This document shows, one piece after another, positions 11,704 to 12,577 of a stretch of DNA of 12,577 bases. A program made the position numbers and the translations under genes. The DNA comes from a virus (Duplodnaviria > Heunggongvirae > Uroviricota > Caudoviricetes). Position 1 is the stretch's first letter; each line of letters begins with the position of its first letter. The stretch is taken from the IMG/VR virus record IMGVR_UViG_2675903368_000004; one strand, 5' to 3'. The notes under the pieces were generated by a model that worked only from the letters and a program-made list of their open reading frames with translations, did no database searches and was not told where the DNA came from.

Positions 11704-12511
11704 CGTTCTTTTCCTCTTTGCCTTTCGTATCTTTAAAGTTATTCAACGGATTTGCTGCATTTACGCTGACCAGCATTTCATCCAGACCGTCAACCGGGTT
11801 CATATCCTCAAATGCCCTGGCTTCATTCCGACTCATCCAGCCATCTGTAATGGCAAAGTGATAGAACTGCGCACGCTCCTGTGGGGTCCCACGGAGCAAC
11901 CCCGTGAGGTTGAAACGAACGTAATACCCGGCAGCCCGTTCTGTACGGGTAAACAGGCGACGGTTAAGCTCCTGCTCCCAGTTCGCAACCCAGGGCATCA
12001 TCGTGTAGCGAACAAACTGAATCGCCTGCTGCGTAATATTCGAAAATGTGGCTTTTTCCAGGTCATTAATCATGTGCGCCGGGACATTAAAAATCCCGGC
12101 AATCATCGACCGGTTCAGCTTGGTCATATCAATGATCTGAGCATCCACCGGAGAAACTGTCAGAGCGCGGTAATCCAGTTGCGCAGGCAGCAACATGGTT
12201 TTATTTTCCTGGCTGCGAAGCGCTGTCACCGCCCGCTGCCACATATTTTTAAGCCTGCCCCAGCTTTGTTCGTTCAGTTCATTTTTCACAGAAATAATAC
12301 CGGCAGGACGGGCATTACCGTTAAAAAAGGCGCTGGTATACTGCTGGCCACTCATTCCCATACCAATGGTTTCAGCATGCTGCATGATCGGGCTCAGTCC
12401 CATTTTCTGATTGTTTCCCAGCGCCCTGATATGGATCATGTCGTCCGGACTTACCGCAAATGTCAACGACGGATGAAAAGTGATCCACTTATATCTCCAC
12501 CAACGGCCCAA
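11696..12511 (-). CDS. Portal protein, HK97 family (short; possibly the distal part of an interrupted portal gene)
   Basis: 271 codons immediately upstream of the protease; contains ...[47 protein letters not shown]..., which resembles a conserved portal motif normally found in the C-terminal half of ~400-aa portals. First in-frame start is TTG 12511 (GGTGGA 6 nt upstream); first ATG is codon 25. In-frame TAA at 12529-12527. Confidence 0.65.
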
Positions 12512-12577
12512 TATTGATCCACCGTTTTACTCAGGATTAGCTTCAGCTATAACCCCGGCCTTTCGTTTCTGTCTGAG

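Follow-up and report, generated by a model that had tools for sequence, protein, structure and literature searches.

Sequence evidence for an IS100 insertion in the portal gene of an HK97-like lambdoid prophage of Escherichia coli

Introduction

Cryptic or defective prophages inactivated by insertion sequences (IS) and frameshifts are a general phenomenon in Escherichia coli. In tailed phages the portal is a dodecamer that nucleates the prohead, docks the terminase and attaches the tail. The closest described counterparts of the locus studied here are the 408-aa portal protein WP_000923129.1 of E. coli lambdoid prophages and the IS21-family element IS100, known from Yersinia pestis and annotated in E. 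coli NZ_CP062853.1. This annotated copy is 1954 bp long, has the ends TGTCACGAACGG... and ...CGTCGTTGACA, and is flanked by a 5-bp target duplication, CATGA. Five-bp direct repeats and reactive CA ends are products of IS21-family transposition (PMC10122671), and elements of this family can also cause adjacent deletions (PMC9330008).

We analysed a stretch of 12,577 bp, called the window below, which is the entire contig CYCR01000049.1 of the draft E. coli assembly GCA_001284745.1. One of its ends carries a portal open reading frame (ORF) that is too short. A previous sequence-only reading had proposed that the portal gene was interrupted, and this was borne out: the window holds codons 155-408 of a 408-codon gene, placed at the end of an IS100 copy. 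The causes that had been proposed for the short ORF were a nonsense mutation or, alternatively, a genuinely short portal gene preceded by the terminase gene; both are replaced here by an IS100 insertion.

Results

The minus strand was read from position 12577. Frame 1 enters from the window edge, ends in the residues ...AEANPE and is closed by the TAA at 12529-12527; frame 2 is closed by the TAG at 12549-12547 and frame 3 by the TGA at 12545-12543. Stops are thus present in 3/3 frames between 12527 and 12549, which confirms the earlier statement that the three frames are closed in the interval 12527-12550 and that the portal ORF, starting no earlier than TTG 12511, has at most 271 codons. The longest portal-frame ORF indeed runs from TTG 12511 to 11696 and encodes 271 aa, with no earlier start possible. 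A weak GGTGGA Shine-Dalgarno-like motif lies ahead of this TTG. An identical 271-aa protein is present in the protein collection as 'prophage portal protein' (CTV98913.1 and CTZ27208.1).

Residues 18-236 of the 271-aa ORF matched positions 109-321 of the 321-position Pfam profile Phage_portal (PF04860; E = 6.3e-70); the domain is therefore present without its N-terminal third. A full-length match in a protein of about 400 aa would characterize an intact portal, whereas the match obtained here covers profile positions 109-321 only; the ORF is a fragment of a member of the HK97 portal family rather than an intact member. The 3' fragment of the portal gene (11696..12460, minus strand; codons 155-408 and the stop, 765 nt) was 100% identical to nt 463-1227 of the gene encoding WP_000923129.1 in EC32, in 4/4 and in many other E. 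coli strains. The sequence-only reading had estimated that 130-150 N-terminal residues were missing; an N-terminal part is absent, as it had stated, but the number is 154 (codons 1-154).

In the relatives 4/4 (L002), EC32 (L003) and CP062853 (L001), the gene for the 408-aa portal is preceded by terS, terL and a 162-nt ORF. This arrangement bears on the proposal that the edge ORF marks the 3' end of the terminase large subunit gene and that the portal is genuinely short, about 270 aa. Gene order in HK97-like phages is the only point that speaks for it. Against it, the relatives have terL, then the 162-nt ORF, then a portal gene of 1227 nt; the PF04860 profile is matched only from position 109; and the terL gene of this very prophage precedes the portal 5' half on another contig, CYCR01000017.1. 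As the edge ORF is istB (see below) and the portal of the relatives has 408 aa, this proposal was discarded.

The origin of the DNA at the window edge was established by comparison with IS100. Positions 12577-12461 (minus strand) were identical, 117/117 by exact string comparison, to L001 6001-6117, the right end of the 1954-bp element annotated as IS100 in NZ_CP062853.1. The segment 12461..12577 is thus the last 117 bp of an IS100 element, ending ...GTTGACA at 12461, and the window stops inside the IS. It includes the 3' end of istB, which encodes the IS100 helper ATPase (12527..12577, minus strand; the last 16 codons and the stop TAA 12529-12527), and the edge ORF ...AEANPE is identical to the C-terminus of the annotated IstB protein WP_001317493.1. 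Because the edge ORF exactly equals the C-terminus of the NZ_CP062853.1 IstB, this TAA is the natural istB stop codon and not a nonsense mutation in portal.

The same picture emerged when window positions 11000-12577 were compared by megablast with 5,426 complete E. coli genomes. At least 80% of this 1578-nt query was found in 887 genomes, and hundreds of genomes matched only from query base 116 on, that is, in the portal, protease and capsid genes. The first 115-117 bases of the query were annotated as 'IS21-like element IS100kyp family helper ATPase IstB', and thousands of E. coli records matched the 12461-12577 part only, as istB or IS100.

These results are at odds with the idea that a single nonsense mutation, the TAA at 12529-12527, had split a continuous portal gene of which the edge ORF would be the N-terminal part. 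The idea drew on the fact that the edge ORF and the portal ORF share one reading frame; they do, but the two genes are unrelated and the agreement is coincidental. The edge ORF encodes the C-terminus of IstB, the whole of 12461-12577 is 100% IS100 DNA, and no counterpart of this segment is present at the portal site in the intact relatives. Across the junction point the intact portals read ...NEEGAFAVSPDD, with no similarity to the edge-ORF residues, and the true 5' half of the portal gene sits on another contig. No weight is left to the nonsense mutation.

Portal homology begins directly at the IS terminus: window position 12460 is equivalent to nt 463 in the 1227-nt gene, in codon 155 of 408. 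The IS end and the portal gene share the two bases CA, which leaves a 2-nt ambiguity in the position of the junction. The ORF starting at TTG 12511 (11696..12511, minus strand) is a chimera, in which 17 codons of the IS100 terminus are fused to portal codons 155-408. Most likely it is not a functional gene.

The other side of the insertion was found in the same draft assembly. The partner contig CYCR01000017.1 (L005; 114,495 bp) carries, in this order, an HNH gene, terS, terL, a 53-aa ORF, portal codons 1-155, the bases TTTGC and an IS100 left end. Its terminal 142 bp are identical to the left end of IS100, including the istA start MVTFETVMEIKILHKQGM. The left junction on this contig reads ...GCATTTGC joined to TGTCACGAACGG (in a longer form, ...GGGTGCATTTGC joined to TGTCACGAACGG...), and the right junction in the window reads ...GTTGACA joined to TTTGCGG (in a longer form, ...GTTGACA joined to TTTGCGGTAAGT). 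The sequence TTTGC, portal nt 463-467, is therefore present twice, at 12460-12456 in the window (12456..12460, minus strand), next to the IS right end, and at L005 10463-10467 on the partner contig, as a 5-bp target duplication. The termini are those of an IS21-family element with 5'-TG...CA-3' inverted repeats, TGTCACGAACGG... on the partner contig and ...CGTCGTTGACA at window position 12461; the aligned IS100 ends have TGTCA, ACGG and AGTGATCCAC blocks in common and terminate in TGTCA...TGACA.

The visible portions of the element, 142 bp on the left and 117 bp on the right, are 100% identical to the 1954-bp copy, and the draft assembly breaks within the IS. The first 18 codons of istA (at the end of L005) and the last 16 codons of istB (in the window) can be seen in the assembly, both identical to those of the L001 IS100. 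When the two contigs were joined without the IS and without one TTTGC, a 1227-nt portal gene was restored; it is identical to that of EC32 (1227/1227) and encodes the 408-aa protein WP_000923129.1. The 6 kb upstream on CYCR01000017.1 are also 100% identical to EC32.

Rejoining the contigs restores the order terS-terL-portal-protease-capsid, with terS, terL and the portal 5' half on L005, and the portal 3' half, the S78 protease gene and the capsid gene in the window. The prohead protease gene (Peptidase_S78; Pfam E = 1.6e-40) occupies 11104..11703 on the minus strand, downstream of the portal, and the gene for the HK97-type major capsid protein (405 aa; PF05065, E = 2e-70) occupies 9872..11089 on the same strand; both are annotated in the relatives.

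The proteins expected at the left junction were predicted before being looked up. They run from portal nt 1 to the duplicated target and into the IS100 left end, with duplications of 4-8 bp. In an exact look-up in the protein collection, only the version with a 5-bp duplication was present, a 179-aa protein called 'prophage portal protein' (CTU23297.1, CTV02256.1, CTV45988.1 and CTX20144.1); none of the fusion proteins predicted for 4-, 6-, 7- or 8-bp duplications was found there. This left-half protein consists of portal codons 1-155 fused to 23 IS-encoded codons.

The left junction was found on six contigs, one of them from an ENA metagenome assembly (L006), so the junction is real, occurs in several samples and is not a one-off misassembly. 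A chimeric contig end, made by joining IS100 reads to portal reads, might be suspected since this short-read contig stops within a repeat. However, the left and the right junction are both present, their IS ends are reciprocal and their 5-bp duplications match; in addition, the two junction contigs were each seen in two samples, and the metagenome assembly that contains the left junction is independent. An assembly artefact is accordingly extremely improbable.

Conversely, the exact IS/portal junction was found in 0/5,426 complete E. coli genomes, and an exact scan of the GTDB species representatives with a 34-nt junction sequence gave 0 hits. The only full-coverage matches to the junction query in the complete E. 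coli genomes were two-piece matches, in CP062853 and CP062851, in which IS100 lies at another site, about 475 bp away. In NZ_CP062853.1 this independent IS100 (L001 4164-6117) is inserted in a near-identical prophage upstream of the insertion site of the window, downstream of the 162-nt ORF but ahead of the portal start; it is flanked by the CATGA duplication and leaves the portal intact. Two separate IS100 insertions are thus known within about 0.5 kb of one prophage region.

The proximity of these two sites raises the question of an IS100 adjacent deletion, or of a later IS100-IS100 rearrangement, in which case the junction would be a deletion or inversion scar and the two portal halves would no longer be joined by one IS. 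A deletion starting from a copy such as that of CP062853, located before the portal start, could yield the observed junction, and adjacent deletions by IS21-family elements are documented (PMC9330008). Recombination between IS100 copies could also separate the portal halves after an insertion, and the draft assembly has no sequence linking the two contig ends. Nevertheless, the assembly retains the portal 5' half directly next to an IS100 left end and with the matching TTTGC, and the halves rejoin perfectly, a pattern left by a simple insertion rather than a deletion. A deletion from a CP062853-like copy was rejected on the basis of this 5' half and its matching duplication, and a later inversion or translocation between IS copies received no support. 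Taken together, we regard a deletion or rearrangement as very unlikely.

At 12461-12466 in the window, the right terminus of IS100 supplies TTGACA, a perfect -35 hexamer that faces outward, of the kind described in junction promoters of IS21-family elements. A fusion promoter was searched for because of this hexamer. No -10 at a usable spacing was present in the portal DNA, and the promoter scan returned 0 sites at the IS end. There was no sign that the portal fragment is specifically expressed.

Over the 12,462 bases that they share, the window and E. coli EC32 differ by one indel and one substitution. The indel affects the tape measure gene (3618..6850, minus strand; Pfam TMP domains): one C is missing between 6655 and 6654 compared with the intact gene of EC32 (L003 11619-14846), which changes ACAGCTAAA to ACAGTAAA. 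Two ORFs of 70 aa (6638-6850) and 1005 aa (3618-6635) now stand where EC32 encodes a single protein of 1075 aa. The contig occurs in two samples, and because the deletion lies outside any homopolymer run, it is probably a real frameshift and not a sequencing error. The break in the tape measure frame that had been noticed from the window alone thus corresponds to a 1-nt deletion relative to an intact copy, and it would represent a second inactivating lesion of the prophage. The sole substitution, at window position 5146 (T here, G in EC32), also lies in the tape measure gene.

Two other observations were made in the window. At about 7195-7210 (minus strand), the tail assembly chaperone gene (Phage_TAC_1) carries a run GGTTAAAAAAAAGTAG at its end, immediately ahead of the Phage_tail_T ORF. 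This run resembles the typical slippery sequence at which lambdoid tail genes undergo programmed -1 frameshifting (G/GT type). At the other end of the contig, window position 1 corresponds to nt 1231 of the 3399-nt host-specificity gene J. As J is common to lambdoid prophages, this end is presumably another repeat-induced assembly break.

Discussion

We propose that the short portal ORF is explained by an IS100 insertion in the portal gene of an HK97-like lambdoid E. coli prophage, at nt 463-467, with duplication of TTTGC (probability about 0.96). In this scheme, a copy of IS100 (IS21 family, 1954 bp, with istA for a DDE transposase followed by istB for an AAA+ helper) would have entered the portal gene by transposition, with duplication of its 5-bp target, splitting the gene into codons 1-155, now on the other contig and followed by 23 IS codons, and codons 155-408, in the window. 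The short-read assembly was interrupted in this multi-copy IS, so that the window stops 117 bp into the IS right end; the edge ORF is the 3' end of istB. More generally, when a truncated gene lies at a contig edge and an ORF runs in from that edge, the ORF is often the tail of an IS that interrupted short-read assembly.

A prophage that lacks an intact dodecameric portal would form no proheads capable of packaging DNA, and hence no infectious particles; the split of the portal at codon 155 is thus expected to abolish virion production. A portal break combined with a tape measure break had been taken to point to a defective prophage, and the combination found here, portal::IS100 and a 1-nt tape measure deletion, supports this view. 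The prophage is very probably defective. The two fragments might instead both be expressed, the N-terminal 155 residues with their 23-residue IS tail and the C-terminal part from TTG 12511, and complement one another, or the disrupted prophage might be retained for a different purpose. We consider this highly improbable, since the scan of the IS end gave no fusion promoter and the tape measure gene is broken too.

These results affect annotation. One half of a single IS-disrupted pseudogene is represented by the 271-aa entries CTV98913.1 and CTZ27208.1 and by shorter calls of this fragment, the other half by 179-aa entries such as CTU23297.1. The corrected annotation is a portal::IS100 pseudogene in two pieces, in a prophage to be scored as defective.

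Compared with the IS100 of E. coli NZ_CP062853.1, the copy shared by the window and its partner contig is alike in its ends, in the 5-bp length of its duplication and in the positions of the istA start and istB stop. No difference from the annotated element was observed in the visible parts; the insertion site alone, portal nt 463-467, sets this lineage apart. Compared with WP_000923129.1, codons 155-408 are identical, and the downstream order of genes (S78 protease, HK97-fold capsid, connector and tail genes) is the same as in the relatives that encode this protein. The gene differs in being split: the window holds the C-terminal 254 codons, preceded in the longest ORF by 17 IS-derived codons. 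Like the IS-inactivated defective prophages of E. coli, this prophage combines an IS in a structural gene with a frameshift in a second one, the tape measure gene. Unlike in those prophages, the IS100 event is recent: outside it, only one indel and one substitution separate the 12.5-kb module from the intact EC32 prophage. IS100 and the HK97-type portal of a common E. coli lambdoid prophage are both well known, and their encounter here is a routine event that involves no new biology.
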